Source of the DNA: Escherichia coli | GTDB taxonomy: Bacteria > Pseudomonadota > Gammaproteobacteria > Enterobacterales > Enterobacteriaceae | Strand: one strand, 5' to 3' | Assembly: GCF_965641715.1 (NCBI RefSeq) | Contig: NZ_OZ282453.1 | DNA: 64,000 bases | Shown: piece after piece, positions 1-43,114 of the stretch | How positions within the stretch are numbered: position 1 is the first letter of the stretch | Layout: the number at the start of each line of letters is the position of its first letter | Translations under genes and position numbers: made by a program | Notes under the pieces: model-generated | Database searches by the model: none | Told to the model about the DNA's origin: nothing | What the model saw: only the letters and a program-made list of their open reading frames with translations

Positions 1-2
1 AC

Positions 3-179
3 ATGTTATCACCGATTATTGAAAAATTGCAGAAGATGGAAATTAACTGCAAAATACATCCTTACATTTACATTGCAACAAATGATAGCATGAGCGGATT
101 TTATGCTTTCACCTGTAGTCAGATGTTAAACTCTGAATCACCAAATAATTGCAACTCTCTCTATTATAAAGCGGAGTAA
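3..179 (+). CDS. C-terminal end of an unidentified ORF entering from the left window edge (...NSLYYKAE*)
   Basis: Frame 3 is open from the window edge to TAA at 177-179. GGAG at 173-176 serves the next ATG at 184, suggesting an operon. Confidence 0.3.
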   Translation: MLSPIIEKLQKMEINCKIHPYIYIATNDSMSGFYAFTCSQMLNSESPNNCNSLYYKAE

Positions 180-183
180 TCAT

Positions 184-675: not shown

Positions 676-776
676 CAGCATTGTTGCTCCTGGCGTTTGT
701 CACCAGTTAATAACCTTCTGATGGCTTTGTTTATATTTTAAGGCAATAAAAAACCATTCCAATATTGGTTAATTAT

Positions 777-2291: not shown

Positions 2292-2484
2292 ACATGTTTC
2301 CCCACGCATCAGGGTGATGCAACCTAAGAAATTATAGTACAATTGCCAGTAAAAGCGGGTGATAGCAGACTGATCAATGATAAGCATTTAAGATCATATA
2401 GTACTATGATATTTCTGAAAATTGTTACGCATGTCTGCGAATAGCTATTTAGCGCTTACCAAAATCACCCGCTAAAATGCCGCT

Positions 2485-3843: not shown

Positions 3844-4189
3844 AAAGCTACACCAACCTGTAGGTTGTAGATCCCTTTCTATTATTAATAGATATAAGAA
3901 CTCTACAGTTGTCAATATGAAAACCCACTCACAAACAATACCGATGATGATAGTTGCAGACCGCAATTATTATTACCTTAGTGCTTTATACATTCTTTGC
4001 GACAAGACAGGCTTGTAAATATTTATAAATGGTTATAAGGAAATCCTTATAAAACATTCATTCATAGATATATTAGGAATAACAATTGAATCCGTGAGTA
4101 CAGTAACGCTGCATTTCATCAGGACTTTCGAAAAATCCGAAATCATGCATCGGAATTTACTGATTTAATTATTTTACTCCTAATTTATT

Positions 4190-4431
4190 TTGAAAAAGGC
4201 ATTGGGATTTATGCCGTATTCCTGAAGATCCTCATCATTGGAATGGATTTTCGGGCGAGAAAAGGATTTTATATGGACACTCTGCTCATCATTTCTTCTT
4301 CTCATCATCAACAATTCACGTCTCTCTTCCGCGTTTAATAACGGATTATGAGGTGCAAAAAATATCTTTCTTTTCAGTTACCTGTCATTAGATACAGAGA
4401 GAGATTTTGGCAATACATGGAGTAATACAGG
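4190..4431 (+). promoter_or_regulatory. pgaA 5' leader with GGA (CsrA-type) motifs, including over the SD and start codon
   Basis: Seen: cattGGAatGGAtttt, aaaaGGAtttt and acatGGAgtaatacaGGATG. CsrA repression of the pgaA leader is established in K-12. Confidence 0.5.
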
Positions 4432-6855
4432 ATGTATTCAAGTAGCAGAAAAAGGTGCCCGCAAACCAAATGGGCTTTGAAAATTCTTACTGCCGCATTT
4501 TTAGCAGCGAGTCCCGCGGCGAAGAGTGCCGTTAATAACGCCTATGATGCATTGATTATTGAAGCTCGCAAGGGAAATACTCAGCCAGCTTTGTTATGGT
4601 TTGCACAAAAATCAGCACTCAGTAATAACCAAATTGCTGACTGGTTACAGATTGCCTTATGGGCCGGGCAAGATAAACAGGTTATTACCGTTTACAACCG
4701 CTATCATTATCAGCAATTACCAGCGCGTGGTTATGCAGCTGTCGCCGTCGCTTATCGTAACCTGCAACAATGGCAAAACTCGCTTACACTGTGGCAAAAG
4801 GCGCTCTCTCTGGAGCCGCAAAATAAGGATTATCAACGGGGACAAATTTTAACCCTGGCAGATGCGGGTCACTATGATACTGCGCTGGTTAAACTTAAGC
4901 AGCTTAACTCTGGAGCACCGGACAAAGCCAATTTACTCGCAGAAGCCTATATCTATAAACTGGCAGGGCGTCATCAGGATGAATTACGGGCGATGACAGA
5001 GTCATTACCTGAAAATGCATCTACGCAACAATATCCCACAGAATACGTGCAGGCATTACGTAATAATCAACTTGCTGCCGCGATTGACGATGCCAATTTA
5101 ACGCCAGATATTCGCGCTGATATTCATGCCGAACTGGTCAGACTGTCGTTTATGCCTACGCGCAGTGAAAGTGAACGTTATGCCATTGCCGATCGCGCCC
5201 TCGCCCAATACGCTGCATTAGAAATTCTGTGGCATGATAACCCTGACCGCACTGCCCAGTACCAGCGTATTCAGGTTGATCATCTTGGCGCGTTATTAAC
5301 TCGCGATCGTTATAAAGACGTTATTTCTCACTATCAGCGTTTAAAAAAGACGGGGCAAATTATTCCGCCCTGGGCGCAATATTGGGTTGCGTCGGCTTAT
5401 CTCAAAGAACATCAGCCAAAAAAAGCACAGTCAATAATGACAGAGCTCTTTTATCACAAGGAGACCATTGCCCCGGATTTATCCGATGAAGAACTTGCGG
5501 ATCTCTTTTACAGCCACCTGGAGAGTGAAAATTATCCGGGCGCGCTAACTGTCACCCAACATACCATTAATACTTCGCCGCCTTTCCTTCGGTTAATGGG
5601 CACGCCTACGAGCATCCCGAATGATACCTGGTTACAGGGGCATTCGTTTCTCTCAACCGTAGCAAAATATAGTAATGATCTTCCTCAGGCTGAAATGACA
5701 GCCAGAGAGCTTGCTTATAACGCACCAGGAAATCAGGGACTGCGCATTGATTATGCGAGTGTGTTACAAGCCCGCGGTTGGCCTCGTGCAGCAGAAAATG
5801 AATTAAAAAAAGCAGAAGTGATCGAGCCACGTAATATTAATCTGGAGGTTGAACAAGCCTGGACAGCATTAACGTTACAAGAATGGCAGCAGGCAGCGGT
5901 CTTAACGCACGATGTTGTCGAACGTGAACCGCAAGATCCCGGCGTTGTACGATTAAAACGTGCGGTTGATGTACATAATCTTGCAGAGCTTCGTATCGCT
6001 GGCTCAACAGGAATTGATGCCGAAGGTCCGGATAGTGGCAAACATGATGTCGACTTAACCACCATCGTTTATTCACCACCGCTGAAGGATAACTGGCGCG
6101 GTTTTGCTGGATTCGGTTATGCCGATGGACAATTTAGCGAAGGAAAAGGGATTGTTCGCGACTGGCTTGCGGGTGTTGAGTGGCGGTCACGTAATATCTG
6201 GCTCGAGGCGGAGTACGCTGAACGCTTTTTCAATCATGAGCATAAACCCGGCGCGCGCCTGTCTGGCTGGTATGATTTTAATGATAACTGGCGTATTGGT
6301 TCGCAACTGGAACGCCTCTCTCACCGCGTTCCATTACGGGCAATGAAAAATGGTGTTACAGGCAACAGTGCACAGGCTTATGTTCGTTGGTATCAGAATG
6401 AGCGGCGTAAGTACGGTGTCTCCTGGGCTTTCACTGATTTTTCCGACAGTAACCAGCGTCATGAAGTCTCACTTGAGGGTCAGGAACGCATCTGGTCTTC
6501 ACCATATTTGATTGTCGATTTCCTCCCCAATCTGTATTACGAACAAAATACAGAACACGACACCCCATACTACAACCCTATAAAAACGTTCGATATTGTT
6601 CCGGCATTTGAGGCAAGCCATTTGTTATGGCGAAGCTATGAAAATAGCTGGGAGCAAATCTTCAGCGCAGGTGTTGGTGCCTCCTGGCAAAAACATTATG
6701 GCACGGATGTCGTCACCCAACTCGGCTACGGGCAACGCATTAGCTGGAATGACGTGATTGATGCTGGCGCAACGCTACGCTGGGAAAAACGACCTTATGA
6801 CGGTGACAGAGAACACAACTTATACGTTGAAATCGATATGACATTCAGATTTTAA
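4432..6855 (+). CDS. pgaA: PGA (poly-beta-1,6-GlcNAc) outer-membrane export porin
   Basis: 807 aa with TPR-like N-terminus and beta-barrel C-terminus. Matches PgaA length and sequence from memory. First gene of the pgaABCD order. Confidence 0.95.
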   Translation: MYSSSRKRCPQTKWALKILTAAFLAASPAAKSAVNNAYDALIIEARKGNTQPALLWFAQKSALSNNQIADWLQIALWAGQDKQVITVYNRYHYQQLPARGYAAVAVAYRNLQQWQNSLTLWQKALSLEPQNKDYQRGQILTLADAGHYDTALVKLKQLNSGAPDKANLLAEAYIYKLAGRHQDELRAMTESLPENASTQQYPTEYVQALRNNQLAAAIDDANLTPDIRADIHAELVRLSFMPTRSESERYAIADRALAQYAALEILWHDNPDRTAQYQRIQVDHLGALLTRDRYKDVISHYQRLKKTGQIIPPWAQYWVASAYLKEHQPKKAQSIMTELFYHKETIAPDLSDEELADLFYSHLESENYPGALTVTQHTINTSPPFLRLMGTPTSIPNDTWLQGHSFLSTVAKYSNDLPQAEMTARELAYNAPGNQGLRIDYASVLQARGWPRAAENELKKAEVIEPRNINLEVEQAWTALTLQEWQQAAVLTHDVVEREPQDPGVVRLKRAVDVHNLAELRIAGSTGIDAEGPDSGKHDVDLTTIVYSPPLKDNWRGFAGFGYADGQFSEGKGIVRDWLAGVEWRSRNIWLEAEYAERFFNHEHKPGARLSGWYDFNDNWRIGSQLERLSHRVPLRAMKNGVTGNSAQAYVRWYQNERRKYGVSWAFTDFSDSNQRHEVSLEGQERIWSSPYLIVDFLPNLYYEQNTEHDTPYYNPIKTFDIVPAFEASHLLWRSYENSWEQIFSAGVGASWQKHYGTDVVTQLGYGQRISWNDVIDAGATLRWEKRPYDGDREHNLYVEIDMTFRF

Positions 6856-30596: not shown

Positions 30597-30963
30597 TACT
30601 GACCTCCGTCTGGGTATAGACATCATATTGCATAGAATTAACGCGGCGTATGGCGGCTGCCATATTTTCGCTACGTGGGACTAAGCTTAGTGAACTGACG
30701 CGGGCAGACCCGCGTTTGGTAATATCCTGCAACAGCTTCTTAGCGAGAATAGATATCATCTCCAATAATTATCTATAAGCCGCTCTTATGATTAAAAAAA
30801 CGCGATGAGATAAAAATGTGTCATTTTGCGACAAAATTGCGTGCTTGTGAAAGTTGTTATAAATCAAATAAGTGGTTGTGAAATTTGCACTCTGAAAAGG
30901 ACGTCTTATCTTTAAATAAGTGGTAGCGAATCGCTACGGAATAGAGATAACACGAGGAGTGGT

Positions 30964-31005
30964 TAGAAATGGCTAAAGTTCTGGTGCTTTTACATAGCTA
31001 AACAC
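30964..31005. other. attL of the wrbA island (proposed crossover GT at 30984-30985)
   Basis: The host-to-island transition is located by comparison with the attR junction. GTGCTTT is shared at 30984-30990 and 42533-42539. Confidence 0.7.
30969..31001 (+). pseudogene. wrbA: orphaned native 5' end of wrbA (MAKVLVLLHS*), severed by island insertion
   Basis: ATGGCTAAAGTTCTGGTGCTTT equals the remembered native wrbA start (MAKVLVLYYS...). The sequence diverges after 30990 and hits TAA at 30999-31001. Confidence 0.85.
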
Positions 31006-31329
31006 GTACATTCAACTACCTGTTAATTACAGGACATAAACAGGTTAGTACCTATTCAATTTAAAGGCATTTCCCCAAGTATCTAAGCAATTCTACACAG
31101 ATTCTATGCAGTATCGGTATAGTCCCTTTTTATCATAACTTATTGAAATATATAAAGAATCTGTGAAGTATCTTTTCAGGGTAAACTGTATCGTGTTAGT
31201 CGTCCCTCTCCAGACACTACATATAGTGCTATATACAGGGTTATATAGCGATGTATAGATGCTTGGTCACCATACGTTACAGTTGCAAGAGATAACAATC
31301 AGCTATGTGAAAGTTAGGAAGTGATGGTT

Positions 31330-31367
31330 ATAGTTGATTCGGTTAGTTCTAGGAATCAACCTCATAG
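31330..31367 (+). repeat. hairpin unit U1 (ATAGTTGATTC...CTCATAG family)
   Basis: Stem GTTGATTC (31333-31340) / GAATCAAC (31353-31360), 12-nt loop, then CTCATAG. Confidence 0.7.
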
Positions 31368-31934
31368 TTACCTTGTCAAATCTTCGTAGTTCCTCTTAAA
31401 AAATCACTTACAGACACCTTAATATCTATACAGATTTCATGTAGAACACGATTAGTGCGTAAAAAAGCTATTATGTTAAAAACGCACTGTATACGTATCA
31501 GTACTGATTTATAAGGGTTTTGTGTATTGGCTGATAAGAGGCTATACAGCACCTTGAGAGCATGTCTTGTAAGTCATTGATACATAAGGTCACAGAAGTT
31601 TGTAGCTGTTACAGAGAAAACTGGATAGGACTTCACAGGACTATAAAATGTTACAGCAATTGATAGGTGAAATCTTCTTGATAGATGCTGTGAAGTGTGA
31701 TGAAGGTTTCTTGAGGTGGAGTTAACAGATGCTATGAAGAAAGTCAATAGATATTTTAAAATTCTGCAAAGGGGGCCACATAGCTGGTGTGACGGGTACT
31801 TAGCAGGTATAGACCTGTGATAGATATTTTCGAAGATTCGGGGAAGATGAGATTCAAAGAGGACTAGTCATTTTTTATAAAAATTTTCAGAGTCTGAAAA
31901 GTTACTGCACAGATTTTGCACAATCCTACCAAGC

Positions 31935-31969
31935 CTCATAGTTGATTCGATTAGAAGCTAATCTCATAG
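31935..31969 (+). repeat. hairpin unit U2
   Basis: CTCATAG-TTGATTC, then stem GATTAG / CTAATC with loop AAG, then (C)TCATAG. Confidence 0.7.
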
Positions 31970-31972
31970 AAA

Positions 31973-32085
31973 GCTCTGTAGCGAGTTTTAACCCCATTTT
32001 TAGGGGTAACCTGTAGGGATGTACCACCCACCTTAAAATAAAGGGGTAAAATCGCTTAGAATGCGTTACAGAGCGTCTGAGAAGC
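31973..32085. repeat. inverted-repeat arm Y (partner 35643-35755)
   Basis: The reverse complement aligns without gaps to 35643-35755. 81 of 113 positions are identical by hand count. Confidence 0.75.
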
Positions 32086-32596
32086 CATATTCACAGATTT
32101 TACTAAAACCTCAGACTTCTAAGTGGTCTTTTTAACAGGAGGGTTCTTTCTCATGTATCACCCTCTCTTCCCGCCAAGTAAGCTACACAGACCTAGAGAA
32201 TATGCCTTCACAGCATCTATATCAGGTCAGATTTAGAGGTCTTGATAGAATCTTCAAAGGTACTTGACAGATAACTATGAAGTTGTTAGGAAGGGGTGTT
32301 TAACGGGGGAAGAGATACGATATAACCCGAAGGGGAGAGTATCATCTTAACAGTGATTGTAAGAGTAAAACTGAAAAGATACTTAACAGAACTACCAAGA
32401 GGGAGCGATAAGACCAGAGGTAGTGACCTGTTAAACAGTTCGTTTCAAAGCTCTTAAGAGTCTGTTAAGTAAGGTCATGTGAACAATCATATCATTTTGT
32501 CAATGCTTTTGTCTTTGACCTAAATCAATAAAATGTATCGTTTGATGTGCTTTTAAACAAAATAGTTAAAAATCTTTTTAGAGGGGCGCTTCGCTT

Positions 32597-33265
32597 GTGT
32601 CACATCCAATAATCCATATCGGTCGTTATCATGGTGGTTCTGATGACTGGCGTACACCGTATCGTCTATTTCATAACCTGCATCGTGAGTATAGCTTCAG
32701 TCTAGATGGCGCTGCAACTGAGCATGACGCATTGTTGCCACGGTTCACCGATGATATAAACCGTCAATCATGGGTTGGTGAACGGGTCTTCGTTAACCCG
32801 CCGTTTAGCATGGCTGAACAGTTCCTCGCAAAAGCCCCTGAAGCTGATGTGTGTGTATGTCTGGTTCCGCACAGGTCAAAGACAACTTACTGGCTTCGGT
32901 GTGTATATACAAACCCCTTCCTGCATGAGATTCGAACATTACACCGAGCGGTTAAATACCTTCCACCAGCAGGAAAGAGAGGTGTTGTAGCGCGTTCACC
33001 ATTTGCAAGCTGTGTTTTGATATACAGGAACACACCCCGTAAACCGAAGGTTGAAATTACCCAGACAATCTATTGTGGCGACACAATGCTTTTACTTGCC
33101 GTGGTTAATAGGGGTGGTTTACGTGGAAGACCTCATATACACGATGCACAGACGCTTGACAGGTTGATTAAAATGCATGACCAAGGGCAATCCGTCAAGA
33201 GTATCGCAGAATCGCTAAGAATGCCTCTAAGCACCACTTACAGGATTGTTCAAAGGTTGAGCTAA
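32597..33265 (+). CDS. phage Dam-family N6-adenine DNA methyltransferase fused to a C-terminal resolvase-type HTH
   Basis: GTG start with GAGGGG 10 nt upstream. DWRTP...FSLDGAA and VFVNPPFS (motif IV) resemble the phage T1/Stx-phage Dam family. The C-terminus GRPHIHDAQTLDRLIKMHDQGQSVKSIAESLRMPLSTTYRIV resembles the Hin/resolvase HTH. Confidence 0.75.
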   Translation: MSHPIIHIGRYHGGSDDWRTPYRLFHNLHREYSFSLDGAATEHDALLPRFTDDINRQSWVGERVFVNPPFSMAEQFLAKAPEADVCVCLVPHRSKTTYWLRCVYTNPFLHEIRTLHRAVKYLPPAGKRGVVARSPFASCVLIYRNTPRKPKVEITQTIYCGDTMLLLAVVNRGGLRGRPHIHDAQTLDRLIKMHDQGQSVKSIAESLRMPLSTTYRIVQRLS

Positions 33266-33266
33266 A

Positions 33267-33296
33267 ATTCTCATATAGAGCACTGATTATGAGAAT
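33267..33296 (+). terminator. 9-bp perfect hairpin directly after the methyltransferase stop
   Basis: ATTCTCATA (33267-33275) / TATGAGAAT (33288-33296), 12-nt loop. No clear T-tract, so its function is uncertain. Confidence 0.35.
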
Positions 33297-33474
33297 GTTA
33301 AAGAGGCGATTTCCCCTTTCTGGGGTTATTCGCTTTTTACTGGAAGGGTTATTTTACAGAGGTTTTTCAAACCCCCTCAATAATAAAAAACGAGCAACAA
33401 ACGAAGAGCGAGAAATAAAATATTGAGACTGGTGAACGGGGTCTGTAAAGATTGTTTAAGAAGTCGGTTTAGGG

Positions 33475-33518
33475 ATTGGTAGATGATTCGGATGAAGCAT
33501 CCTCATAACAATACCAAT
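33475..33518 (+). repeat. hairpin unit U3 (nested stems)
   Basis: Outer stem ATTGGTA / TACCAAT. TGATTCG. Inner stem GGATG-AAG-CATCC, then TCATAA. Confidence 0.65.
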
Positions 33519-33574
33519 TAGAAGGTGGCTCTCCCTTTCTGGGGATATCGCCTTGTATCTTAGTGAGTCCAGGA

Positions 33575-33751
33575 AGTTCTCTGTGAAGGGACTTGTCAGT
33601 CCTTTATATTGGCTAATTACAACTTATTGAAAAATAAGCATTTTTAGAAATCACTGTTAAGGTTACAGAGTTCTCTGTGAAGAGACTCGTCAGCTCTCTA
33701 TATTGGCTAATTACAACTCATTGAAAAATAAGCATTTTTAGAAATTGCTGT
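33575..33751 (+). repeat. two direct 83-bp repeats with 94-bp period
   Basis: 33575-33657 against 33669-33751: 75/83 identical by hand count. Each copy contains CTGTGAAG...CTTGTCAG/CTCGTCAG and the hairpin CTTATT-gaaa-AATAAG (copy A; copy B reads CTCATT). Confidence 0.85.
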
Positions 33752-33871
33752 CAGAGAGGTGAGTACTTGATAGATACAGCTTTCCGGTTCTGTCAAGATA
33801 TTTTTTAATAGATAGCACAAAATGCTAAAGATACCCCTATACCATCACGTACAGGGGGTTTTGAAGGGAGT

Positions 33872-34060
33872 TTAACGGGGTTCTGTGTGGTTATCTGTTC
33901 TGGTCCTGTCCTTGAGGTCAAATGACCATTCACGACCAAACAATCTGAACACGATAAACACCCGAACGATGAAATAGCGGAGCAGAAGACCTGCAATCAG
34001 CCCAACACCTCCACCAGCCCATACATCAGGTGACCCCAGCTCAGGAGGGAGATTTACCAT
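33872..34060 (-). CDS. possible small membrane protein (62 aa from the internal ATG; 74 aa from the first ATG at 34096)
   Basis: Only minus-strand ORF in the island besides int. This patch is visibly more GC-rich than the surrounding non-coding DNA. AGGAA lies upstream of ATG 34060. TM segment GGGVGLIAGLLLRYFIVRVFIVF followed by a basic tail. Confidence 0.35.
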   Translation of the reverse strand: MVNLPPELGSPDVWAGGGVGLIAGLLLRYFIVRVFIVFRLFGREWSFDLKDRTRTDNHTEPR

Positions 34061-34097
34061 TAAATTTCCTGTGTGCAATGCAATACCATGTGACATA

Positions 34098-34153
34098 CAT
34101 AGTTGATTCGGTTAGTTGGGCTTGTACCAACCCCTATCGAATAAACCTCATAG
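34098..34153 (+). repeat. hairpin unit U4 (nested stems)
   Basis: CATAGTTGATTCGGTTAGTT is identical to U1 over 19 nt. Outer stem TTGATTCG / CGAATAAA, inner stem GTTGG / CCAAC, ends in CTCATAG. Confidence 0.7.
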
Positions 34154-34222
34154 CCACGCTTCATATTTCCCCCTCTCTCATAAACCATTATACCACAAAT
34201 GTTACGAAATTGTTAAAAATAC

Positions 34223-34251
34223 TTGACATTAGTCTTTGAAAATGCTAGTAT
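34223..34251 (+). promoter_or_regulatory. island promoter P1 (sigma70-type)
   Basis: TTGACA-17 nt-TAGTAT, preceded by TGTTAAAAAT and followed by TGTATATA. It is a near-copy of P2. A GTTAA-N7-TTAAC palindrome follows at 34261-34277. Confidence 0.65.
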
Positions 34252-34299
34252 TGTATATAAGTTAACAGAGAATTAACAATTATAAGGACTAGCTTATGA

Positions 34300-34857
34300 A
34301 TGAACGACAGAGAATTTAGAGCGATGCTTCAGGCATCGAGACAACGTAACAGATACAACTCCTACAGCTACACAGACACCCCCACCAGCTACGAACTACC
34401 CAAGCTCACCAGAGCAGAACGCAAAGGCCTTGATGAATTAATTCGTAGCATTACGCCACGAGATAGATTTATGCCAACCAGAAAGAGCACGAAGAACACT
34501 ATTAAAAATTATCTGGCTAACTTTGACAGCTACGAACAATTACCAAGTAAGCTTGATGATGTAATTATCGGATTCTGTAGAAGTGAAGGTCACCCGAAAT
34601 ACAACAAAAAACTATTTTATCTTCTAAAGAATCTTGACGAAATTAACTCAGCCACCGTGACAAATCATCTTCAGCGTCAAGCAACCAGACTTAGCCATGA
34701 ATTACCAAGCGATAAATATTGCGCTTTGCTTGCTGTAATGTGCGCAAAGTTAATTGGTGTTGTTGAGCATCATATTGCCGTTGGAAATATTGAGCCAATG
34801 GAAAACGAGCAACCAGATTTCGAGTTTGACCCGTATTTAGTTACAGAGGAATTTTAA
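34300..34857 (+). CDS. hypothetical protein, 185 aa
   Basis: AAGGA upstream. First gene after P1. No family recognised. Confidence 0.65.
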   Translation: MNDREFRAMLQASRQRNRYNSYSYTDTPTSYELPKLTRAERKGLDELIRSITPRDRFMPTRKSTKNTIKNYLANFDSYEQLPSKLDDVIIGFCRSEGHPKYNKKLFYLLKNLDEINSATVTNHLQRQATRLSHELPSDKYCALLAVMCAKLIGVVEHHIAVGNIEPMENEQPDFEFDPYLVTEEF

Positions 34858-35136
34858 ATGAAGAAACACACTTTGACCCGTATTTCAGAAGAAGCCTTTC
34901 ACGAGCTTACCCGAATTAAACAGACAACTAACCTCCCTCATCAAACTGTTATGCAGCTTGCAATTGCTAAAGAGGTTACTGAGTCGGATTTACTGAAATA
35001 TCCAGTCTCTAAAGGTCGTAAGCACATCCGAATTACTCAGGACGCTTTAGATACTTTGAAGGCACTTAACAACTTTAAAATTGATATCGCCCGACTATTG
35101 AGTATTAAGATTCACAAGTTAGCAATGGGGGTTTAA
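34858..35136 (+). CDS. hypothetical protein, 92 aa (possible ribbon-helix-helix DNA binder)
   Basis: ATG abuts the upstream TAA. The N-terminal KKHTLTRISEEAFHEL pattern looks RHH-like (weak). Confidence 0.55.
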   Translation: MKKHTLTRISEEAFHELTRIKQTTNLPHQTVMQLAIAKEVTESDLLKYPVSKGRKHIRITQDALDTLKALNNFKIDIARLLSIKIHKLAMGV

Positions 35137-35351
35137 TGCTATGCGTTACCTTTGAATACCACACGGATAAAATGATTCGCTACATCTCCGACCTCCTGAT
35201 TGAAGGAAACGGATTCGGTGACATCCATAACTCAAAAGATATTTTCATTAAAGCCATTGGCCCAAATGAAGTACTGAAAACAGCAGTTAAACCGGAATGG
35301 TTTGAGCGTCACAAGATTGAATTAGGTTATTGGGGTGAGGAGGTTTTATGA
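35136..35351 (+). CDS. hypothetical protein, 71 aa
   Basis: TAATG overlap with the upstream gene. Confidence 0.55.
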   Translation: MLCVTFEYHTDKMIRYISDLLIEGNGFGDIHNSKDIFIKAIGPNEVLKTAVKPEWFERHKIELGYWGEEVL

Positions 35352-35635
35352 AACCTTGGCATGAAGATGTTAGACGATATTTTACAGAACACCTTATCTA
35401 TGATGAATCCAGTGATTCCCTGTGCTGGTCTGATGGAGAGTCAGTCACGATAAACACCGACGACTACGGCAACAAAACATTTAATATAGGCCGATATACT
35501 TTCTACGTGAAATATGTTGTCTGGTTCCTTTATCATGGCTATCAATCCAACAAGCAAATTATCCATCGAAATGGTAACAGAGCCGATACCAGACCAAAAA
35601 ATCTTATGCAAGTCCGAGACTTTAAGAGAAATTAG
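35348..35635 (+). CDS. small HNH-type endonuclease-like protein, 95 aa
   Basis: ATGA overlap with the upstream gene. YVVWFLYHGY...IHRNGNRADTRPKNL resembles the HNH_3 motif (H-x-N-G-N..DNR..NL). Confidence 0.65.
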   Translation: MKPWHEDVRRYFTEHLIYDESSDSLCWSDGESVTINTDDYGNKTFNIGRYTFYVKYVVWFLYHGYQSNKQIIHRNGNRADTRPKNLMQVRDFKRN

Positions 35636-35642
35636 AAAAACA

Positions 35643-35755
35643 GCTTCTCAGACGCTCTCAATCGCATTCTAACGCAAAAAACTATCTTATTTTAGGGTGG
35701 GTAATACCACTGTACAGGCTACCCCTGAAAAAGACTGTTTAGCTCGTTACAGAGC
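35643..35755. repeat. inverted-repeat arm X (partner 31973-32085)
   Basis: See arm Y. Lies in the 156-bp gap between the HNH gene and the next ORF. Confidence 0.75.
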
Positions 35756-35791
35756 GATTGAGGAGGTCTGGTAAAAAGGAGATTTTAAGAA

Positions 35792-36121
35792 ATGAGAGAA
35801 TTAAACTTCCCACTACAGATTTTTATTGATACCGACACCGCCATGATGATTCAGGCTTTCACTGATGTAGGTGTTAGCATTGACTTTGATAAGTTGTTAG
35901 AGTTAATGACTGATAATGCGGAAAGCATCTCTGACTTTATTCAGTCGGTGGAGTTTAACGAGCCTCGAATGATGCTACCAATTAAAGACAGCAACATGAA
36001 AAGATTGGTTATCGAGCAAACGAACAAATTCAGCGTTAGCCCTGAAAAATATCTCAAGGCGGCTATAGCAATTTTGTACGCTGACAATATTTTGGTGACG
36101 GATTCGAAGGTGGTGCATTAA
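35792..36121 (+). CDS. hypothetical acidic protein, 109 aa
   Basis: AAGGAG lies 8 nt upstream of the ATG. Confidence 0.6.
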   Translation: MRELNFPLQIFIDTDTAMMIQAFTDVGVSIDFDKLLELMTDNAESISDFIQSVEFNEPRMMLPIKDSNMKRLVIEQTNKFSVSPEKYLKAAIAILYADNILVTDSKVVH

Positions 36122-36186
36122 TGGAATTGGTGATTATCTGTTTTGTATTGATTGGTATGATTGCAGGTGCATCTATTAAAGTATAA
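36121..36186 (+). CDS. 21-aa hydrophobic peptide MELVIICFVLIGMIAGASIKV
   Basis: TAATG overlap with the upstream stop (translational coupling). Single TM-like stretch. Below the ORF-track size cutoff. Confidence 0.4.
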   Translation: MELVIICFVLIGMIAGASIKV

Positions 36187-36211
36187 ATGTTACCAATCTG
36201 TTAAAAATCTG

Positions 36212-36240
36212 TTGACAAATAACCTTGAGCATGACATAAT
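36212..36240 (+). promoter_or_regulatory. island promoter P2 (sigma70-type)
   Basis: TTGACA-17 nt-CATAAT, preceded by TGTTAAAAAT and followed by TGTATATA. Confidence 0.65.
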
Positions 36241-36246
36241 TGTATA

Positions 36247-36503
36247 TATATGAGGATAGTCTTCTATCCGAAGTCTATAGGGAGAGCAATTCTCCTTGAA
36301 TTAAAATATTAATCATCTCTACATCAATGATAACTATATTCTGAGTTGGTGAGGTATGTTCTATACCGAACATTCTGAAAGGTGCAATGCTTTTCGTCAT
36401 GGCCTTTCAGTTTAGTCTGAGAGGCTATCTCAAAAAGTGCTTAATCATTCATTCATTGAATCCTTTACAGCTTTGCCCTAATCATGAGTTAGGGCGTTTC
36501 TTT
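36247..36503 (+). ncRNA. putative ~255-nt leader/short RNA from P2 to the first terminator
   Basis: No ORF of 60 aa or more. Hairpins GGATAG-tctt-CTATCC, GGAGA-gcaat-TCTCC and CTGAAAGG (36375-36382) / CCTTTCAG (36403-36410). Ends at an intrinsic terminator. Confidence 0.3.
36475..36503 (+). terminator. intrinsic terminator in the P2 leader
   Basis: GCCCTAA-tcatgag-TTAGGGC followed by GTTTCTTT. Confidence 0.7.
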
Positions 36504-36573
36504 AAGAGTTTTAAGCAGAGCTTTTAAAGAAAGTTTTTCCTGAAACTTCGTTAACGTTATAAAGCAAACCTTC

Positions 36574-36610
36574 AAAGCCCTTCACAGATTCAATGTTTAG
36601 GGCTTTTCTT
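36574..36610 (+). terminator. second hairpin/terminator in the P2 leader
   Basis: AAAGCCCT / AGGGCTTT 8-bp stem. The 17-nt loop contains CTTCACAGATT. Followed by TCTT. Confidence 0.45.
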
Positions 36611-36707
36611 AATAGAGCATCTTTAATAAATCGTTAAGTCATCTTCTAAGTGTATTGGCGTTGAAGGTGCTCTGTTAAGAAATAAACCACACTTAGAGGA
36701 AGTTATA

Positions 36708-37418
36708 ATGACAAACGATTTATATATTAACGGTAAAAAGGTTGATAGCTTCGGTGACTGGTCGCCACAGACTGAACATCCAGCTATCACTATTCAGCGC
36801 AAAGAACACGATGAAAGAATTGCACTTGAGCAAGAAATCCGAATGTCACCAAAGGTAATTTCCTTTGTGGCTCCTGAGCCTCAAGATATGCCGGATATTT
36901 GCAAAACTGAAGCATTGCTTGAGCTTGAAAAGAAATTTTACCCAGCTTTAAAAGCACAGCGTCTTAAACTAGATGACGCTTACAGTAAAGTTACCCTGAT
37001 GCAATCAGCTATTGAGCCATCAGAATTTGAGATTCAGGATGAATTGTCACAGAAACCATTTGTCTATTACCAATATGAAGACAATGATGGTTTTGGTACT
37101 TTTCCTGAGAATATCCCAGACGTGATTAATAATCCGATGGATGGATATCGAATTGTGAAGATGGTTAAGGCATCAAGAGGTGCTGGTCAGTTTATTTACA
37201 TGACTAATAAGAGCGATGAAGAACTCGCTGAACTTGCTAGACAGAACATCTTGGCATCACGTAACAAGCAGCTTGATAATGTTAAGTTGTATCTCTCAAG
37301 AGAGCTTCAGGCTATGAAAGACCTTGTGAAAGAATATGAAGATGCTAAGAAGATTGCTATGCAAGCCGATATTGAGCAGTTAGTGAAGATTTCTAGCAAA
37401 TATGCAAAGGCTATTTAA
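36708..37418 (+). CDS. hypothetical acidic/coiled-coil protein, 236 aa
   Basis: AGAGGAAG upstream. It sits where tail assembly chaperones sit in siphophage gene order, but I saw no sequence motif supporting that role. Confidence 0.6.
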   Translation: MTNDLYINGKKVDSFGDWSPQTEHPAITIQRKEHDERIALEQEIRMSPKVISFVAPEPQDMPDICKTEALLELEKKFYPALKAQRLKLDDAYSKVTLMQSAIEPSEFEIQDELSQKPFVYYQYEDNDGFGTFPENIPDVINNPMDGYRIVKMVKASRGAGQFIYMTNKSDEELAELARQNILASRNKQLDNVKLYLSRELQAMKDLVKEYEDAKKIAMQADIEQLVKISSKYAKAI

Positions 37419-37437
37419 TTATGATGTGAGGTGAAGA

Positions 37438-37653
37438 ATGATTGATTTAACTGAACGCTATGAAGTTATTAAGTCTGTTTGTGAGAACTTAAAGCTTCAG
37501 ACTAAACCAAAGCTACGAATTAAAAATCAGCATCAAGTTATCACCTCACACAAACCAAAGGTTAGAAGGATTCCTTCATGGTGTATTGACCGTGTTCCTG
37601 CTGATGCTCAATTAATTGGTGAGTCTGGTTCTTACACTTATATCCTTCATTAA
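37438..37653 (+). CDS. hypothetical basic protein, 71 aa
   Basis: GAGGTGAAG upstream. Confidence 0.5.
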   Translation: MIDLTERYEVIKSVCENLKLQTKPKLRIKNQHQVITSHKPKVRRIPSWCIDRVPADAQLIGESGSYTYILH

Positions 37654-37660
37654 AAATTAC

Positions 37661-37704
37661 AAAGGGGAGAGATTAGCCTTAATTGGTTAGTCTTTCCCTT
37701 TTTC
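37661..37704 (+). terminator. imperfect hairpin + T-run upstream of the tape-measure gene
   Basis: aaaggggagaga ... tctttccctttttcg, with a bulged stem. Confidence 0.4.
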
Positions 37705-37734
37705 GTATATGAACACTTAAGAGGTGAAACATGA

Positions 37735-39864
37735 ATGGCACAGTTTAAAGTTGATAGTTTTATCGTTGAGCTAGGCTTCAGCGAGAACGTTATTAAGGGC
37801 TTGCAAAGAGTTGAAAAGGCAGCTTTGCAGTCAGCACAAAGAATTGAGCGTAATTTGAATAGAGCGTTTAAGGTCGATACCAAGCAACTTGACAGCAATT
37901 TAACGGCTTCTTTGAAGTCAATGGAAGGAAAAATTAATAAGACCTTTGACCGTCTGGAAGCTAGAGCAAAAAATACTAAAGCTTTCCAGTTTACCACCAG
38001 ATTTAATGACACTGTTAATCCTCCAAAACAACCGAGACAGCCACGAATTAGCGGCAACAGAGCAATCACAGCAGCTTACTCAGCGAATATGAGCAAGTTA
38101 AAGGGCTTTGACCCTATTTTGCAGAAATACATCAAATCTCAGTTTTACGGGCTATCTGCTAAAGCTGGGTCAATGGATAACACCAAGTTTAATGAAGCCC
38201 TTGCTAAACTAAATTCAAGTGTAAGAGAAGCAATTGCTAAAGCTAAAGGTCATACATCCACCAGCATTAACGGTGACAGAGCAGCTAATAGTCTTGATAA
38301 CCTGTCTTCAGCGGCGGTTAAAACAGCAGGTGCATTTATCTCAATGCAGGCTGTATTAGCCAGTTATCAGAAGATTATGGAGGTTGGTTTACAGCGTGCA
38401 AGTGCTGAGCGTTCAATTGATTTCGTATTTGATAAAGATGCAGGTCAGGTAAAAGAGTTCACAAAGTCATTAGCTCAAACAACGGGTTTAGATATCGCTG
38501 AACTGCAATCACAGTTTGCTGGTTTCGGTGCTTCAGCTAAAGAGTCTATGGGTATTCAAGGTTCTGAAGAGCTTTTTAGAAATATGATTGGCTATGCTCG
38601 TTTAATGGGTCGAAGTGAAGAAGAGATTAAGCGAGCACTGACAGCATTATCACAGATGGCTGGTAAGGGTCAGGTTATGGCTGAAGAGCTTAAGGGGCAA
38701 CTAGCTGAAGCTGTTCCTGGTATGGTTCAGGTATTCGCTAAAGCAACCGGAAAGAGTGAACAGGAATTATTTGATGCCATGAAGAAGGGGGCTTTAAAAT
38801 CTGCCGATACTCTTCAGAAGGTCACTCAGGAACTGAATAGACAAATCACCGCTAAAGGTGGCTGGAAAGCTATTTCAGAAAGTACACAGGCACAACTAGG
38901 GAACTTGAAAAACTCTTGGAATACCACGCTTGACAGTATTTTCAGAGGTTCTGAAGATGGTTTACAGGACTTCACAAGAAGCTTAACCAATCTTCTAAAC
39001 GCTCTTGGTGGAACTGGTAAAACATTAGGTGAAAGTTTTGGTAGCTTGATGAGCGATATGTCACATGGTATCGATTCATTGACTGATATCTCTTACAGGG
39101 TACGAGGTTTCTTTGATGAGGTGACATTAGCTTACCGTTCACTAAATGACACTCAGAAAAAAATTGTTGATGGTTTATCTGATGGGTTAATTGATGGTTT
39201 GAAAATGCTTGCCGTAGCTGTTACTGCTCAAAAGGCTGCAAATGTAGCTGGAGGCTTGTTAAACCTTGCAAACGCTGTTACTTCATTCGGTGACGCTGTT
39301 AATAAAGCTAAAGCTGGCAAGGCTGGTTCTTCAGGTGGTGCGCTAAGTAAAGTCGGTAGAGTTGTCCTTTATGCTGAGTTGGTAAACTTTGCTCTTGATA
39401 ATTTAAACCCTGAAGCAGCTAAGAATCCGAACTTACATCAATCAGGTATTGGAACAGAGACAAACTTCAACCCTGAATACAAAGGCGATTCTACACCAAA
39501 CCAAATTAATGATGGATGGGCTAAGATTGGTAGTTCTATCGCTGACTGGTTTAATGGTGCGGCTAATAAAATTGCTAACTTCCAAGAGCCAATGAGTAAC
39601 CTTGTTAATAACACACAATCAACTCCACCAGCTATTACAGGTGACATGGTTAATAGCAATGCTCAACTTGCAATGGCTATTAGTGAACTATCACGTAAGG
39701 TTGATGCTTTAACAGCAGAATCTAAGAAGCCCTTGTCACTTAATATCAAAGGTGAAGCAATTGTTAGACCGGATGAACCAGCTTTCTTTACTTTCAATCA
39801 ATCAGCTAATGACCAGTTCACGCAGGATATGCTCTTAAGTTCAAGCTATCCAGAGGAAGAATGA
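37735..39864 (+). CDS. phage tail tape-measure protein, 709 aa
   Basis: GAGGTG lies 8 nt upstream. LSQMAGKGQVMAEELKGQLAEAVPGMVQVFAKATGKSEQELFDAMKKGALKSADTL matches the conserved tape-measure N-terminal domain pattern. Long Ala/Gly/Ser-rich helical protein. Confidence 0.8.
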   Translation: MAQFKVDSFIVELGFSENVIKGLQRVEKAALQSAQRIERNLNRAFKVDTKQLDSNLTASLKSMEGKINKTFDRLEARAKNTKAFQFTTRFNDTVNPPKQPRQPRISGNRAITAAYSANMSKLKGFDPILQKYIKSQFYGLSAKAGSMDNTKFNEALAKLNSSVREAIAKAKGHTSTSINGDRAANSLDNLSSAAVKTAGAFISMQAVLASYQKIMEVGLQRASAERSIDFVFDKDAGQVKEFTKSLAQTTGLDIAELQSQFAGFGASAKESMGIQGSEELFRNMIGYARLMGRSEEEIKRALTALSQMAGKGQVMAEELKGQLAEAVPGMVQVFAKATGKSEQELFDAMKKGALKSADTLQKVTQELNRQITAKGGWKAISESTQAQLGNLKNSWNTTLDSIFRGSEDGLQDFTRSLTNLLNALGGTGKTLGESFGSLMSDMSHGIDSLTDISYRVRGFFDEVTLAYRSLNDTQKKIVDGLSDGLIDGLKMLAVAVTAQKAANVAGGLLNLANAVTSFGDAVNKAKAGKAGSSGGALSKVGRVVLYAELVNFALDNLNPEAAKNPNLHQSGIGTETNFNPEYKGDSTPNQINDGWAKIGSSIADWFNGAANKIANFQEPMSNLVNNTQSTPPAITGDMVNSNAQLAMAISELSRKVDALTAESKKPLSLNIKGEAIVRPDEPAFFTFNQSANDQFTQDMLLSSSYPEEE

Positions 39865-40020
39865 TTTAACGGTGTTCTACGTGAATAAAGCAAAGTTAAT
39901 ACCCACACCAAAAATTATTTTTCACGTAGCTCACGCTTAACAGAGAAAATACATATATATCAAAGGCTTGGTTAAAAATGATTAAAATACACTAAGCCTT
40001 TGAAATCAAAGGAGAATTTA

Positions 40021-40794
40021 ATGATTTTTAGCAATCAAATCCGCTACAGTGGCAAAGATGGCATCTATTTCCACTTAAGAGATAATGTAGATGCCTTCTT
40101 AACCTTATCAGCAACTGAAAACATGGAATTTGACAGTCCTATGCAGGTGACTACACAGAACATGCAATCAGGGCAAACCGTCACAGATAATGTGCAAAGA
40201 GCACCCAGAACAATCACTATTAGTGGTGTCGTTGTAGTTGGCTATGAAGGAAGCTTATTATTAACTCGTCAGGGTCAATTAGTAGAAAACTTCATTGACA
40301 CTCTTGAAAGCTGGAGAGACCAGAAACAAATTATTTCAGTGATTTGTAAAGATGGTATCAAGATTGATGACTCAATTATTACCAACTTTAAAGCCTCTAA
40401 AGATGTTACTATCTCTAACGGTCTTCGTATCCAGCTAACTTTTCAGGAAATTAACTTCAAAGCCATTGTAGGGCAAACTGATGTTTCAGCAGCTACTGGC
40501 AAAACTGCTACCACTAATGATGGTGGTGCTACCAGTAAAAAGAATGCGGGTAACGTGACTACTGAACGCAATAACGCACCTATGTTGATGTGTCAGGAAC
40601 TGTATAGCTACTCAGCATCTGAGCTATCTGATGAAGCGCTAAGGGTCCGTAGCAATTGCTCTAAAAATGTCACGGTGAAAGATGGTGTAAGCACCTTCAC
40701 AGCCTCAGCTAATGAGCAGGCTTCAAAAGTGCTTAAGTCGGGTAATGCTTTACGGAAGTTTAGTGTGAATCCGAATAAGAAGGGCACTTATTGA
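40021..40794 (+). CDS. putative tail-tip/distal-tail-like protein, 257 aa
   Basis: GGAG lies 6 nt upstream of ATG 40021. Sits directly after the TMP. The assignment rests on position only. Confidence 0.45.
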
Positions 40795-40811
40795 TTGGTA
40801 ACAATACCAAT
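40794..40811. terminator. hairpin between the convergent tail gene and int
   Basis: ATTGGTA-acaa-TACCAAT. These are the same arms as the outer stem of unit U3. Confidence 0.45.
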
Positions 40812-40813
40812 TC

Positions 40814-42457
40814 CTAAGCGTCCACCTCTTCCATATCACCAGCAGGATAAATCCTTGTTACTGGTTCACCAAAAATAAGCATATCATCTAGTGACTGCAT
40901 CTCATCGGTTGCTTCTTCAAGCGTTAAGGTGTGGTCATCTTTACCATCAAGAGGGAAACCACGAATCATATTTCCATTGTGAAGATATATATCCACCAGC
41001 TTTTCATTACCAGAAACAACAATCTCTTTCACCAGACGCTTAATGATAATCTGGGCTTCAGTTCTCCCCTCTACAGACTCCATATCAAGACCGCTTAAAT
41101 CCAAGCTTGATACAGATTTTACCCTCGCCTTTTCTCGTGATAACTGAACTATCAGTTCATCTTTTTCTTCCTGCTTAACCCGTAGTGCTTCCTGAATCTG
41201 AGTGATGTTAGGAAGCTGTATCAGCGTCTCAGTAAGTTTTTCAAGTTCACTATCAACGGTGTTTAGTCTGCGTTGTAGCTCATCCAATTTAGCTGTGTCA
41301 GTAGCTTCATCGTGTAGCTGTGATAGTTTGCTGAACAGACGACTACAAAGCTGTGTATCAAGTAACTTTCTGGACACTGTACCGTAGCTACAACGGGACT
41401 CCTTATTACCATTGCAACGGTAAGTACCTTGATAAACGGGTTTACGTATCCCTGTAGGAGTCATTACAAGCCCACACTTACAACGGATAAGCCCCTTCAG
41501 TATGTTCACATATAGCCAGTGTTCACCGCTGGATGTTTTCCCCTTCCCTGTTTCCTCTAACAGTTGCTGTACAGCGTAAAACTTAGAGTCTGTGACAATC
41601 TGAGGATAGAACCCTTCAATTTCTTCACGTAACACTGTTTTACGGTCTTCTGTAGAAATCTTAGCGGGAAGGTAACCTAATACACTTCGTGAAGTCAGGA
41701 TGTGTTTAACGCTTAATGCTGACCAGTTGCCATCCGGTTTCTTAGTCTTGGATATTCTGACCTTACGCTGATTAATGGTCGGGTAACCTTGTTCGTTTAG
41801 CCATTTACAGATAGCAAACATCGACATACCAGAAAGACGCTTGTCATAGATGATATTCACCAGTGACGCTTTATCTTCATCAACGATGTAGTGTGAACCG
41901 TCTTCTGATAGCTCTAACCATCCGGGGGCTTGCTTACCCATAGGCTTCTTAAGTTCTCTTGCAAGCTGTGTTTTATGGTTCCAGACCTGAGCTATACGCT
42001 TTTGCTTAACAAGAGATTCCTGATGTGCTCTCTCAGCTATGATGATGTGCTTAATCAACTTCACAGGGTCTGTTAATGCTGATTTGTCGTAGAGTTCACC
42101 ATCTCCCAGAGTCAGTATAGAGACTCCTTTCCTCAGTATCTGCCTGACATCATCTATAGCTGTGTCGATATCAGCCCTACTGAAGCGGTCAAAGTTCTCT
42201 ACAACAATCAGGGAACCTTCTGGAATAGCCCCAGACATAACATTTTCAAACATACGTCTGAAGTCAGAACCTTGAGCCTTATGTTGCTGGTGAAAACCAG
42301 ATTTACCCTTATCAACGTATCTGTGAGCAGGAAGAAGGTAATAATCGTTTTTGTGCTTAGAGTAGAAAGCATCAATGAGGTTTGTTTGCCGTCTTAAGGA
42401 GTCTCCTGAGTCTTGCTCTTTAGTACTCCACCTGATGTATGTCACTAGCAGCTTCAT
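40814..42457 (-). CDS. large serine recombinase (integrase), 547 aa
   Basis: N-terminal resolvase catalytic domain ([28 protein letters not shown]). Recombinase domain. Cys-rich zinc ribbon (CKCG...YRCNG...C). Coiled-coil. Terminal position 75 bp from attR. Confidence 0.88.
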
Positions 42458-42508
42458 ATCTTCGGACTATGCTTATCTAAGTGGTTCATTGAACAGGAGA
42501 ACAATGAT

Positions 42509-43114
42509 ATGAGTGTTAAGGCAAGAATACTAGTGCTTTATTATTCCATGTACGGACATATTGAAACGATGGCACGCGCAGTCGCTGAGGGTGCAAGCAA
42601 AGTGGATGGCGCTGAAGTTGTCGTTAAGCGTGTACCGGAAACCATGCCGCCGCAATTATTTGAAAAAGCAGGCGGTAAAACGCAAACTGCACCGGTTGCA
42701 ACCCCACAAGAACTGGCCGATTACGACGCCATTATTTTTGGTACACCTACCCGCTTTGGCAACATGTCCGGTCAAATGCGTACCTTCCTCGACCAGACGG
42801 GCGGCCTGTGGGCTTCCGGCGCACTATACGGAAAACTGGCGAGCGTCTTTAGTTCCACCGGTACTGGCGGCGGTCAGGAACAAACCATCACATCCACCTG
42901 GACGACCCTTGCGCATCACGGCATGGTGATTGTCCCCATTGGCTACGCAGCGCAGGAATTATTTGACGTTTCACAGGTTCGCGGCGGTACGCCGTACGGC
43001 GCAACCACCATCGCAGGCGGTGACGGCTCACGCCAGCCAAGCCAGGAAGAACTGTCTATTGCTCGTTATCAAGGGGAATATGTCGCAGGTCTGGCAGTTA
43101 AACTTAACGGCTAA
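42509..43114 (+). CDS. wrbA: NAD(P)H:quinone oxidoreductase WrbA, hybrid allele with an island-encoded N-terminus
   Basis: 201 aa. [17 protein letters not shown]... against remembered native [14 protein letters not shown].... AGGAG at 42495-42499. The remainder matches WrbA. Confidence 0.92.
42513..42554. other. attR of the wrbA island (proposed crossover GT at 42533-42534)
   Basis: Island-to-wrbA transition. See attL. Confidence 0.7.

Follow-up and report, generated by a model that had tools for sequence, protein, structure and literature searches.

We describe an inserted DNA element in Escherichia coli whose cargo points to a common, apparently undescribed class of elements that would target Felix-O1-like phages by way of the tail hub. 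The element is an island of 11,549 bp (one copy of the core counted) that interrupts codons 6–7 of wrbA in a 64,000-nucleotide stretch of contig NZ_OZ282453.1 (RefSeq assembly GCF_965641715.1), to which we refer as the window. Comparison of sequences firmly supports two conclusions about the family to which the island belongs: that it is active, driven by recombinases, and engaged in repeated exchange of DNA with virulent Felix-O1-like phages, and that it maintains altered versions of two proteins that are central to the phage baseplate. We consider it on balance probable that the family is a satellite or parasite of virulent Felix-O1-like myophages, similar in kind to the PLEs of Vibrio cholerae. 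The island also rebuilds the gene that it enters; this repair, elegant as it is, represents an adaptation of a familiar type, and the greater interest lies in the cargo.

Two tail genes related to those of Felixounavirus phages

The only virion proteins recognized in the island with Pfam and PHROG are a tape-measure protein and a tube-initiator protein; no genes for capsid, portal, terminase, sheath, tube, or lysis proteins were found with these profiles. The tape-measure protein, of 709 residues (37735..39864, plus strand), is a homologue of Felixounavirus gp17 (PF20155; phrog_4036, E 2e-82). The tube initiator, a Dit-like protein of 257 residues (40021..40794, plus strand), matches PF21821, and its open reading frame (ORF) opens with a TTG at position 40000. 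Both proteins have counterparts in the virion structure of phage Bas63: the tube initiator matched PDB entry 9ndy_A (Bas63 tube initiator protein gp018) with an E value of 7e-121, and the tape measure matched 9ndy_F (Bas63 gp017) with an E value of 2e-67, residues 1–72 matching closely. In comparison with phage garuso, amino acid identity is ~77% for the tube initiator and ~29% for the tape measure.

The resemblance to the phages is confined to sharply bounded segments. The first ~519 nucleotides of the tube-initiator gene are 90%–94% identical to those of dozens of Felixounavirus genomes (96.5% for one sibling copy of the island), and the match to the phages always ends near nucleotide 519, the remaining ~80-residue C-terminal extension being divergent. 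The tape-measure gene shares with the phage only its first ~145 nucleotides (79%) and its last 30–44 nucleotides (86%–100%), and in several copies the last 30 nucleotides are 97%–100% identical to the phage sequence. Correspondingly, the N-terminal ~45–70 residues and the C-terminal tip of the tape-measure protein are phage-like, and the body of the protein is 15%–35% identical to that of the phage and ~50%–65% identical among island copies. The same pattern was seen across 19–21 family members, in which the N-terminal domain of the tube initiator is 81%–96% identical to the phage protein, no farther from it than the islands are from one another, and the C-terminal extension together with the tape-measure body is 15%–49% identical to the phage and ~50%–70% identical among islands. 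Moreover, one and the same recombinase protein accompanies tape measures of 680, 682, 709, 719, 725, or 726 residues. No sequenced phage was found to contain a tape-measure body or a tube-initiator extension of the island type. We also observed that GU169904.1, a database entry named "Staphylococcus phage SA1," matches the Felixounavirus tube-initiator gene at 91%–95% nucleotide identity; the entry probably includes Felix-O1-like sequence as a result of contamination or chimerism.

The structure of Bas63 (PMC12609058) suggests what the conserved segments may do. The C-terminal 25 residues of its tape measure touch the hub and the puncturing protein, and the N-terminal part of its tube initiator forms a tube-like hexamer that seeds the tube, the C-terminal extension spanning the baseplate. 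Because these same segments make the hub and tube contacts in the Bas63 structure, we take the segments that the islands conserve to be docking parts.

Apart from the two tail genes, the genome of phage garuso contains no homologue of the ORFs of the island. It does contain noncoding sequence resembling that of the ORF-poor left arm of the island: positions 31750–31905 of the window resemble positions 49952–50107 of garuso, which are part of a 1.65-kb stretch without ORFs, with a score of 53.6 bits. Such matches between left arms and phage noncoding DNA scored 53.6–69.3 bits, as compared with a maximum of 36.3 bits for shuffled sequence; for the left-arm match of the window, neither 40 shuffles nor control regions elsewhere in the window exceeded 34.7 bits. 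Four siblings (L008:4625-4720, L009:1770-1859, L002:5216-5298, and L021:3112-3199) carry a further phage-like unit, GATTTTTAACGTGGCTAC..., that is followed by ~12 NNACC pentamers and adjoins a minus-strand terminator hairpin. This unit is 76%–81% identical to an early intergenic repeat that is present in garuso in three copies (4385–4480, 5651–5740, and 5776–5856), and it may represent a small RNA or a cis-acting site. In GC content the island (39.8%) differs little from the phage (38.9%), and one sibling has an HNH-AP2 homing endonuclease that is related to phage genes.

Finally, we note that the left arm is a zone of variable cargo (L015:1168-1692; L036:5981-6529; L021:2333-2881). Some left arms hold an HNH-AP2 homing endonuclease related to garuso genes 18 and 31, and others hold a small serine recombinase/invertase of 182 residues; the copy in the window has neither.

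Integration at wrbA and the wider family

Cargo DNA with 80%–92% nucleotide identity to that of the island was found in 569 of 5426 complete E. coli genomes, and the start of the left arm was found in 548 of them, which places the family in ~10% of E. coli genomes. The family is apparently undescribed: a full-text literature search, outside the coverage of which lay most subscription journals, returned no description of it. Gene order is the same at the four insertion sites wrbA, yecE, tonB, and lafU–dinB, namely, the ORF-poor left arm, a Dam-type methyltransferase gene, a minus-strand operon, o185, o92, variable small genes (often including an HNH endonuclease gene), o109, o236, o71b, the tape-measure gene, the tube-initiator gene, and the recombinase gene. 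The recombinases of the four sites are only 29%–38% identical to each other, whereas the cargo is 80%–90% identical, and hence recombinase/att modules have evidently been swapped around a shared cargo. Sixteen wrbA-type copies without insertion sequences (IS), among them that of the window and the metagenomic copy L036 described below, measure 9.8–11.9 kb, with a median of 11.24 kb. We found no relative of greater length: in every case the best coverage amounted to ~11 kb plus IS elements. Named hosts of the family are E. coli, Shigella, E. albertii, E. fergusonii, and Salmonella, and a scan of species-representative genomes added one further locus, in Escherichia sp.

In the window the local order of genes, as established by comparison with an annotated genome, is rutG, ymdF, the island, wrbA, yccJ, and agp. 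A first-pass annotation, based on the letters of the sequence, had proposed that the native wrbA frame is cut short, that the island supplies a new start, that both junctions share GTGCTTT, and that the insert is AT-rich and ends with a large serine recombinase, all of which we found to be so. The native start, with its ATG at 30969, reads ATGGCTAAAGTTCTGGTGCTTT, which continues into the island as TTACATAGCTAA, and the frame stops after 10 codons. The outcome is an orphaned 5′ stub, MAKVLVLLHS* (30969..31001, plus strand), in which the native ribosome-binding site, ATG, and 7 codons are joined to island DNA. The 7-bp core GTGCTTT lies at 30984..30990 in attL, which is also the attL found in locus L001, and at 42533..42539 in attR. 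Just to the left of the attR core is the replacement 5′ end of wrbA (42458..42532, plus strand), which is identical in 11 copies and which provides an AGGAG (42495–42499) placed nine bases ahead of an ATG (42509) and the codons for MSVKARIL. The rebuilt wrbA gene (42509..43114, plus strand) encodes 201 residues, rejoins the canonical WrbA sequence at LVLYYS, and is named NAD(P)H:quinone oxidoreductase by PGAP in occupied genomes. The GC content of the island, 39.8%, is lower than that of either flank (48.7% and 50.0%). As an additional observation, the stretch that contains the replacement ribosome-binding site (42476–42499; TCTAAGTGGTTCATTGAACAGGAG) has an 83%-identical copy in the left arm (32118–32141; TCTAAGTGGTCTTTTTAACAGGAG).

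The last gene of the island encodes the large serine recombinase (547 residues; 40814..42457, minus strand). The protein scored above the cut-off for the Resolvase (PF00239; E 6e-11, residues 5–155) and Recombinase (PF07508; E 6e-20) domains of Pfam, with weak support for a zinc ribbon (PF13408, Zn_ribbon_recom; 22.1 bits against a cut-off of 25.3). Its N-terminal motif, YIRWS(11)TKEQ...GDSLRRQ, aligns with three sibling recombinases. The attachment sites are likewise those of a large serine recombinase, attP and attB being short and nonidentical, with a 7-bp common core and precise junctions; of the 20 bases of the inner left half-site, attP and attB have 14 in common. In our best explanation, the insert is an active integrative element of ~11 kb whose recombinase joins attP to attB within codons 5–8 of wrbA.

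How general is this arrangement? The reconstructed empty site is contiguous in 5127 of the 5426 complete genomes, and the island-side right junction is present in 73, nearly always annotated as "recombinase | wrbA"; the island is therefore a true insertion and is not universal. The junction is identical to the base in all 11 copies that we read (the window, L001, and nine loci of other assemblies). The exact 201-residue WrbA is widespread in public assemblies, and in 10 of the 10 places listed a recombinase gene lies directly upstream of it, interrupted by an IS in three of the 10; the identical recombinase protein adjoins wrbA in 10 of 10 places listed. Thus, the allele that begins MSVKARILV goes with the recombinase, and the alternative that had been raised against an insertion, that native wrbA alleles already begin in this way, does not describe these genomes. 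The suggestion that the element is adapted to its site, rather than having landed there by accident, is upheld by junctions that do not vary among many lineages, the linkage of the allele to the recombinase, a circular attP form, and a sibling at tonB, the last two of which are described below. Restoration of the reading frame by chance upon random insertion was considered as well and was rejected because the junctions are invariant and an attP circle exists.

The attP expected from joining the right end of the element to its left end was sought with a 24-nucleotide probe, which matched three metagenome contigs (L035–L037). One of these, L036, is 11,233 bp long, contains the whole element with a recombinase 99.6% identical to that of the window, and has a 55-bp overlap between its ends, from which we conclude that it is circular. 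A circle of ~11.2 kb is thus the form in which the element excises or enters cells. In addition, a yecE-type attP is present in a permuted metagenome scaffold (L018). A wrbA-type attP is also found in L037 (OOBX01000469.1; 23,009 bp, about twice the length of the element), of which 6 kb was read and which may be a tandem or dimeric form. The same check for circularity revealed no terminal overlap in L015 or L021, and two further candidates, L033 and L034, were rejected as circles, being integrated copies with short chromosomal flanks.

Since the Shine–Dalgarno sequence, ATG, and seven codons lie next to attP, integration would regenerate a full-length WrbA, and the cost of insertion should consequently stay low. 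The rebuilt protein retains the FMN_red and Flavodoxin_1 domains of Pfam, the matches beginning at residues 7–9; ARIL of the island substitutes for the native AKVL, and the first strand and the SMYGH loop, which binds flavin mononucleotide (FMN), are preserved. The likeness of ARILVL to the native AKVLVL may be partly forced, as it would be expected from recognition of the half-site by the recombinase as well as from selection on WrbA, given that the attP and attB half-sites match at 14 of the 20 bases. The native wrbA promoter is displaced by 11.5 kb from the rebuilt ORF, and a promoter scan revealed no strong σ70-like site just upstream of it; the rebuilt gene may nonetheless be expressed. 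Repair is seen elsewhere in the family. A sibling whose recombinase differs has entered tonB at one of its first four codons (core ATGACCCTTGA), with the ORF still intact, but the yecE-type element splits yecE in the middle of the gene, without repair. Hence, as judged from these loci, repair of the 5′ end is a recurring, but not a universal, trait of the family.

Lambdoid prophages of the Shiga toxin (Stx) type also target wrbA, and in them, too, the integrase gene abuts what remains of the wrbA ORF. Unlike the island, they use a tyrosine integrase and an excisionase, and their junction lies ~13 codons deeper in the gene, so that the contrast drawn in the first-pass annotation between the island and Stx-type phages holds. 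An example is found at L006:3400-4058 (NZ_CP074791.1, strain 94_0962), where a lambdoid prophage with a tyrosine integrase leaves a wrbA ORF of 192 residues, MINHILSHVETMARAV.... The replacement N terminus, MINHILSHVETMA..., lacks the first strand and the YYSMYGH loop, and for this reason WrbA is probably not restored at the prophage junction and is probably nonfunctional, although RefSeq still calls an intact wrbA gene.

Remaining genes and repeats of the island

The left arm of the island (~1.6 kb; 30991..32596) contains no ORF of more than 58 residues and is 80%–85% conserved at the nucleotide level at other sites. It is followed by a gene (32597..33265, plus strand) for a 222-residue Dam-type N6-adenine DNA methyltransferase with a C-terminal helix-turn-helix of the resolvase type (PF05869, E 5.7e-13; PF02796, E 4.5e-5; phrog_111, E 2e-24). 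Next are two tandem 83-nucleotide repeats (33575..33751), which are 90% identical to each other, each with a hairpin, and which are also present in family members; a 21-mer related to them is located at 31132–31152.

Two divergent operons follow. The first is a small minus-strand operon with a strong promoter-like site (TTAACA-18-TATAAT, 34216–34187) and a terminator-like hairpin (33857–33834). Its first gene (34164–34060) encodes a 34-residue peptide and is translationally coupled to the second (34060–33872), which encodes a conserved 62-residue peptide (MVNLPPELGSPDVWAGGGVGLIAGLLLRYF...) with a single transmembrane segment. The pair may act as an effector in lysis or abortive infection, or it may form a switch. 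The second operon (34300..35635, plus strand), which is preceded by a promoter-like TTGACA-17-TAGTAT (34223–34251), consists of o185, o92, o71a, and an HNH endonuclease gene (35348–35635, plus strand; HNH_3 domain), the last being the only member of the operon with a recognized function. Relatives of o185 occur in E. coli, Shigella, E. albertii, E. fergusonii, and Salmonella.

Farther to the right are o109 (35792..36121, plus strand), a conserved hypothetical gene without a family match in Pfam or PHROG, and o236 (36708–37418) with o71b, which together occupy 36708..37653 on the plus strand directly upstream of the tape-measure gene. The product of o236 is a helical, coiled-coil orphan for which AlphaFold2 yielded a model with a pLDDT of 65, and this model had no fold match in BFVD below an E value of 0.06. 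A profile search of 1.84 billion representative proteins recovered 20 relatives of o236, all of them unannotated. We rejected the NCBI name "transposase" for o236, there being no Pfam or NCBIfam model behind it. The AlphaFold2 model of o185 (pLDDT 43) was unusable, and neither o236 nor o185 had a meaningful sequence match in the PDB. NCBIfam yielded nothing useful for the island proteins, and an Rfam scan of positions 30700–42700 at E values of up to 0.1 revealed no RNA family.

The motif TTA(A)CAGAG occurs nine times in the island (31609–39945), eight times on the plus strand and mostly in intergenic DNA, as compared with a single occurrence in the remaining 52 kb of the window; garuso, its intergenic DNA included, shows no enrichment. 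The motif may serve the island as an operator or promoter element. Elsewhere in the window, two other stretches are low in GC (30%–38%). Positions 1–4000, beside pgaA, contain genes for a CSS-EAL phosphodiesterase and a MASE4-GGDEF cyclase, and positions 44923–46173 correspond to yccE; both look like ordinary E. coli genes.

Satellite, defense island, or remnant

If the family is a satellite of Felix-O1-like phages, its life cycle might be as follows. Upon infection by such a phage, the element would excise and circularize, and it would then make its own tape-measure and tube-initiator proteins. By means of their phage-like docking ends these proteins would enter the baseplate hub of the phage, where their divergent bodies would alter or spoil the tails. 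The outcome could be transfer of the element itself, protection of the bacterial population, or both. Induction by phage, incorporation into tails, packaging, and transfer are steps that we infer. The satellite reading is the most economical because it accounts at once for the circle, the tight size of ~11 kb, the phage-like noncoding DNA, and homologues that keep the assembly interfaces. Moreover, the island has its own integrase and a circular excised form and falls short of a complete complement of virion, packaging, and lysis genes, as is characteristic of satellites.

Several considerations weigh against this interpretation. The support for it, phage homology and metagenomic circles, is indirect, and there is no evidence of phage induction, replication, or packaging; the attP circles are metagenome contigs, which show excision and not encapsidation. 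We found no copy in IMG/VR outside regions of isolate genomes, either with the wrbA-type attP (0 matches) or in protein-guided scans. With Pfam, PHROG, PADLOC, or NCBIfam we recognized none of the small ORFs as a replication initiator, a small terminase, a capsid-size factor, or a directionality factor. No motif common to the upstream regions of phage late genes and those of island genes was seen, and the copy in the window lacks the phage-like (NNACC)n repeat that several siblings carry. Finally, known satellites almost never carry tail genes (PMC10085698).

Our main rival explanation, which we hold to be unlikely, is that the family is purely a defense island that is mobilized by its recombinase and is never packaged, its tail proteins being dominant-negative poison subunits that abort the assembly of Felix-O1-like tails and so protect neighboring cells. 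Conserved docking regions and divergent, hypervariable bodies are what an arms race predicts, and the absence of recognized packaging or replication genes (Pfam, PHROG, and NCBIfam) fits an element that is not packaged, in which the conserved small membrane peptide and the HNH nuclease could serve as effectors. Interference with tail assembly is also an established property of mobile elements: the Tai systems of PICIs, P4-like satellites, and prophages stop phages at this step (PMC11364771). Tai systems, however, are single small proteins that are not homologues of tail components and that were assayed against lambdoid phages, whereas the candidates in the island are homologues of tail proteins. 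A poison subunit, furthermore, would have no need of a nearly full-length tape measure, yet every copy encodes one of 680–726 residues, and the narrow range of sizes near 11.2 kb, despite differences in gene content, suggests a constraint of the packaging type. A pure decoy would not readily account for the phage-like noncoding DNA of the left arm. An element that has no conjugative functions would need a vehicle to account for its wide spread and diversity. Nor did PADLOC detect a defense system, its sole match being the orphan methyltransferase.

We regard as improbable a second alternative, that the island is a cryptic prophage remnant: a temperate relative of Felix-O1-like phages would have decayed to its right end, with the tail genes and the integrase, and would no longer interact with phages. 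The tape-measure, tube-initiator, and integrase genes are indeed adjacent, as they would be at the end of a prophage; PGAP calls the genes phage proteins; and IS insertions in the recombinase gene have fixed some copies in place. Decay is difficult to reconcile, however, with a compact architecture of intact ORFs in ~550 genomes at four or more sites, with no larger relative, or with the existence of circular excised forms. Besides the two tail genes, no ORF of the island has a homologue in the phage genome, and the abruptness of the mosaic boundaries, with nucleotide identities reaching 96.5%, indicates recent exchange with living virulent phages. Least probable, and in our view very improbable, is a recombinational Trojan horse, in which the phage-like 5′ end of the tape-measure gene (79% over 145 nucleotides) and the N-terminal domain of the tube initiator (90%–96% over ~519 nucleotides) serve as homology arms that carry the aberrant body between them into phage genomes and yield defective progeny. 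The elements do contain HNH endonucleases, and their segments of high identity do flank a strongly divergent one, but docking constraints and gene conversion fully explain the pattern of conservation, and the absence of island-type tape-measure bodies from sequenced phages, which is to be expected if the recombinants are dead, leaves this scheme without positive evidence.

Returning to the satellite reading, the closest parallel is with the PLEs of V. cholerae, which parasitize phage ICP1 (background in PMC10085698 and PMC9638900). Both PLEs and the island are small chromosomal islands that use a large serine recombinase, each is tied to one lineage of virulent myophages and is circular when excised, and each is present in ~10%–12% of the genomes of its host species. 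There are differences as well: induction, replication, packaging, and phage inhibition have been demonstrated by experiment for PLEs, whereas for the island they are proposed; the island family carries homologues of tail-hub proteins of the helper, which PLEs are not known to do; and the hosts and helper lineages differ. No homology to PLE genes was detected, and no annotated family matched beyond the recombinase (Pfam, PHROG, and NCBIfam; PLE-specific profiles were not run).

A second comparison is with satellite P4 and its helper P2. Like the island, P4 is integrative, is frequent in E. coli, and is of similar size (11.6 kb, as compared with the island median of 11.24 kb). P4 has a tyrosine integrase, a primase, a psu–delta–sid operon, and a temperate helper, whereas none of these markers was found in the island with Pfam or PHROG. 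More broadly, the same profiles revealed no markers of P4-like satellites, PICIs, or cf-PICIs (psu/delta/sid, alpA, primase-replicase, terS, or capsid, portal, and adaptor genes). Because the respective marker genes are absent, we do not assign the island to the PLEs, the P4-like satellites, the PICIs, or the cf-PICIs.

A precedent for the tail proteins themselves may be found in Ccm of SaPIbov5, a satellite homologue of the capsid protein of the helper that co-assembles with it and redirects the shape of the capsid (PMC8569155). Ccm and the island proteins are alike in principle, each being a diverged, parasite-encoded homologue of a structural protein of the helper in which the interfaces for assembly are retained. 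The target of Ccm is the capsid, and its mechanism has been shown by cryo-electron microscopy, whereas the island proteins belong to the tail hub, and their incorporation is deduced only from patterns of conservation. The presence of tail genes has a practical consequence: SatelliteFinder treats such genes as forbidden components and rejects candidates that have them (PMC10085698), and the family would therefore be invisible to satellite detectors of this kind.

Several implications follow for E. coli and its phages. In wrbA typing, an occupied site is often taken as evidence of an Stx phage; of the 299 complete genomes in which the site is not contiguous, 73 have this island as the occupant. 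As candidate tools for genome engineering, the family offers four recombinase/att pairs, and in two of them the gene that is entered is restored. To our knowledge, PLE and ICP1 of V. cholerae are the only case in which a parasite of a virulent phage has been worked out in detail; an equivalent in E. coli and Salmonella would provide a tractable second system, as Felix O1 and Bas63, the virion of which has been solved, are easy to handle. If the satellite reading is correct, substitution of the tail hub would join the list of mechanisms of hijacking or defense. Felix-O1-like phages are used in Salmonella typing, in biocontrol, and in therapy cocktails, and a common chromosomal element aimed at them could affect their host range and efficacy. 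It is conceivable, and we put this forward tentatively and as something short of probable, that the family rides Felix-O1-like phages, is present in about one in 10 E. coli genomes, and retargets itself by swapping gene-repairing recombinase/att modules, in which case no satellite-type parasite of a virulent coliphage would have been known before it, nor any satellite family that brings tail-hub parts of its own (tape-measure and tube-initiator proteins) instead of capsid-remodeling factors.

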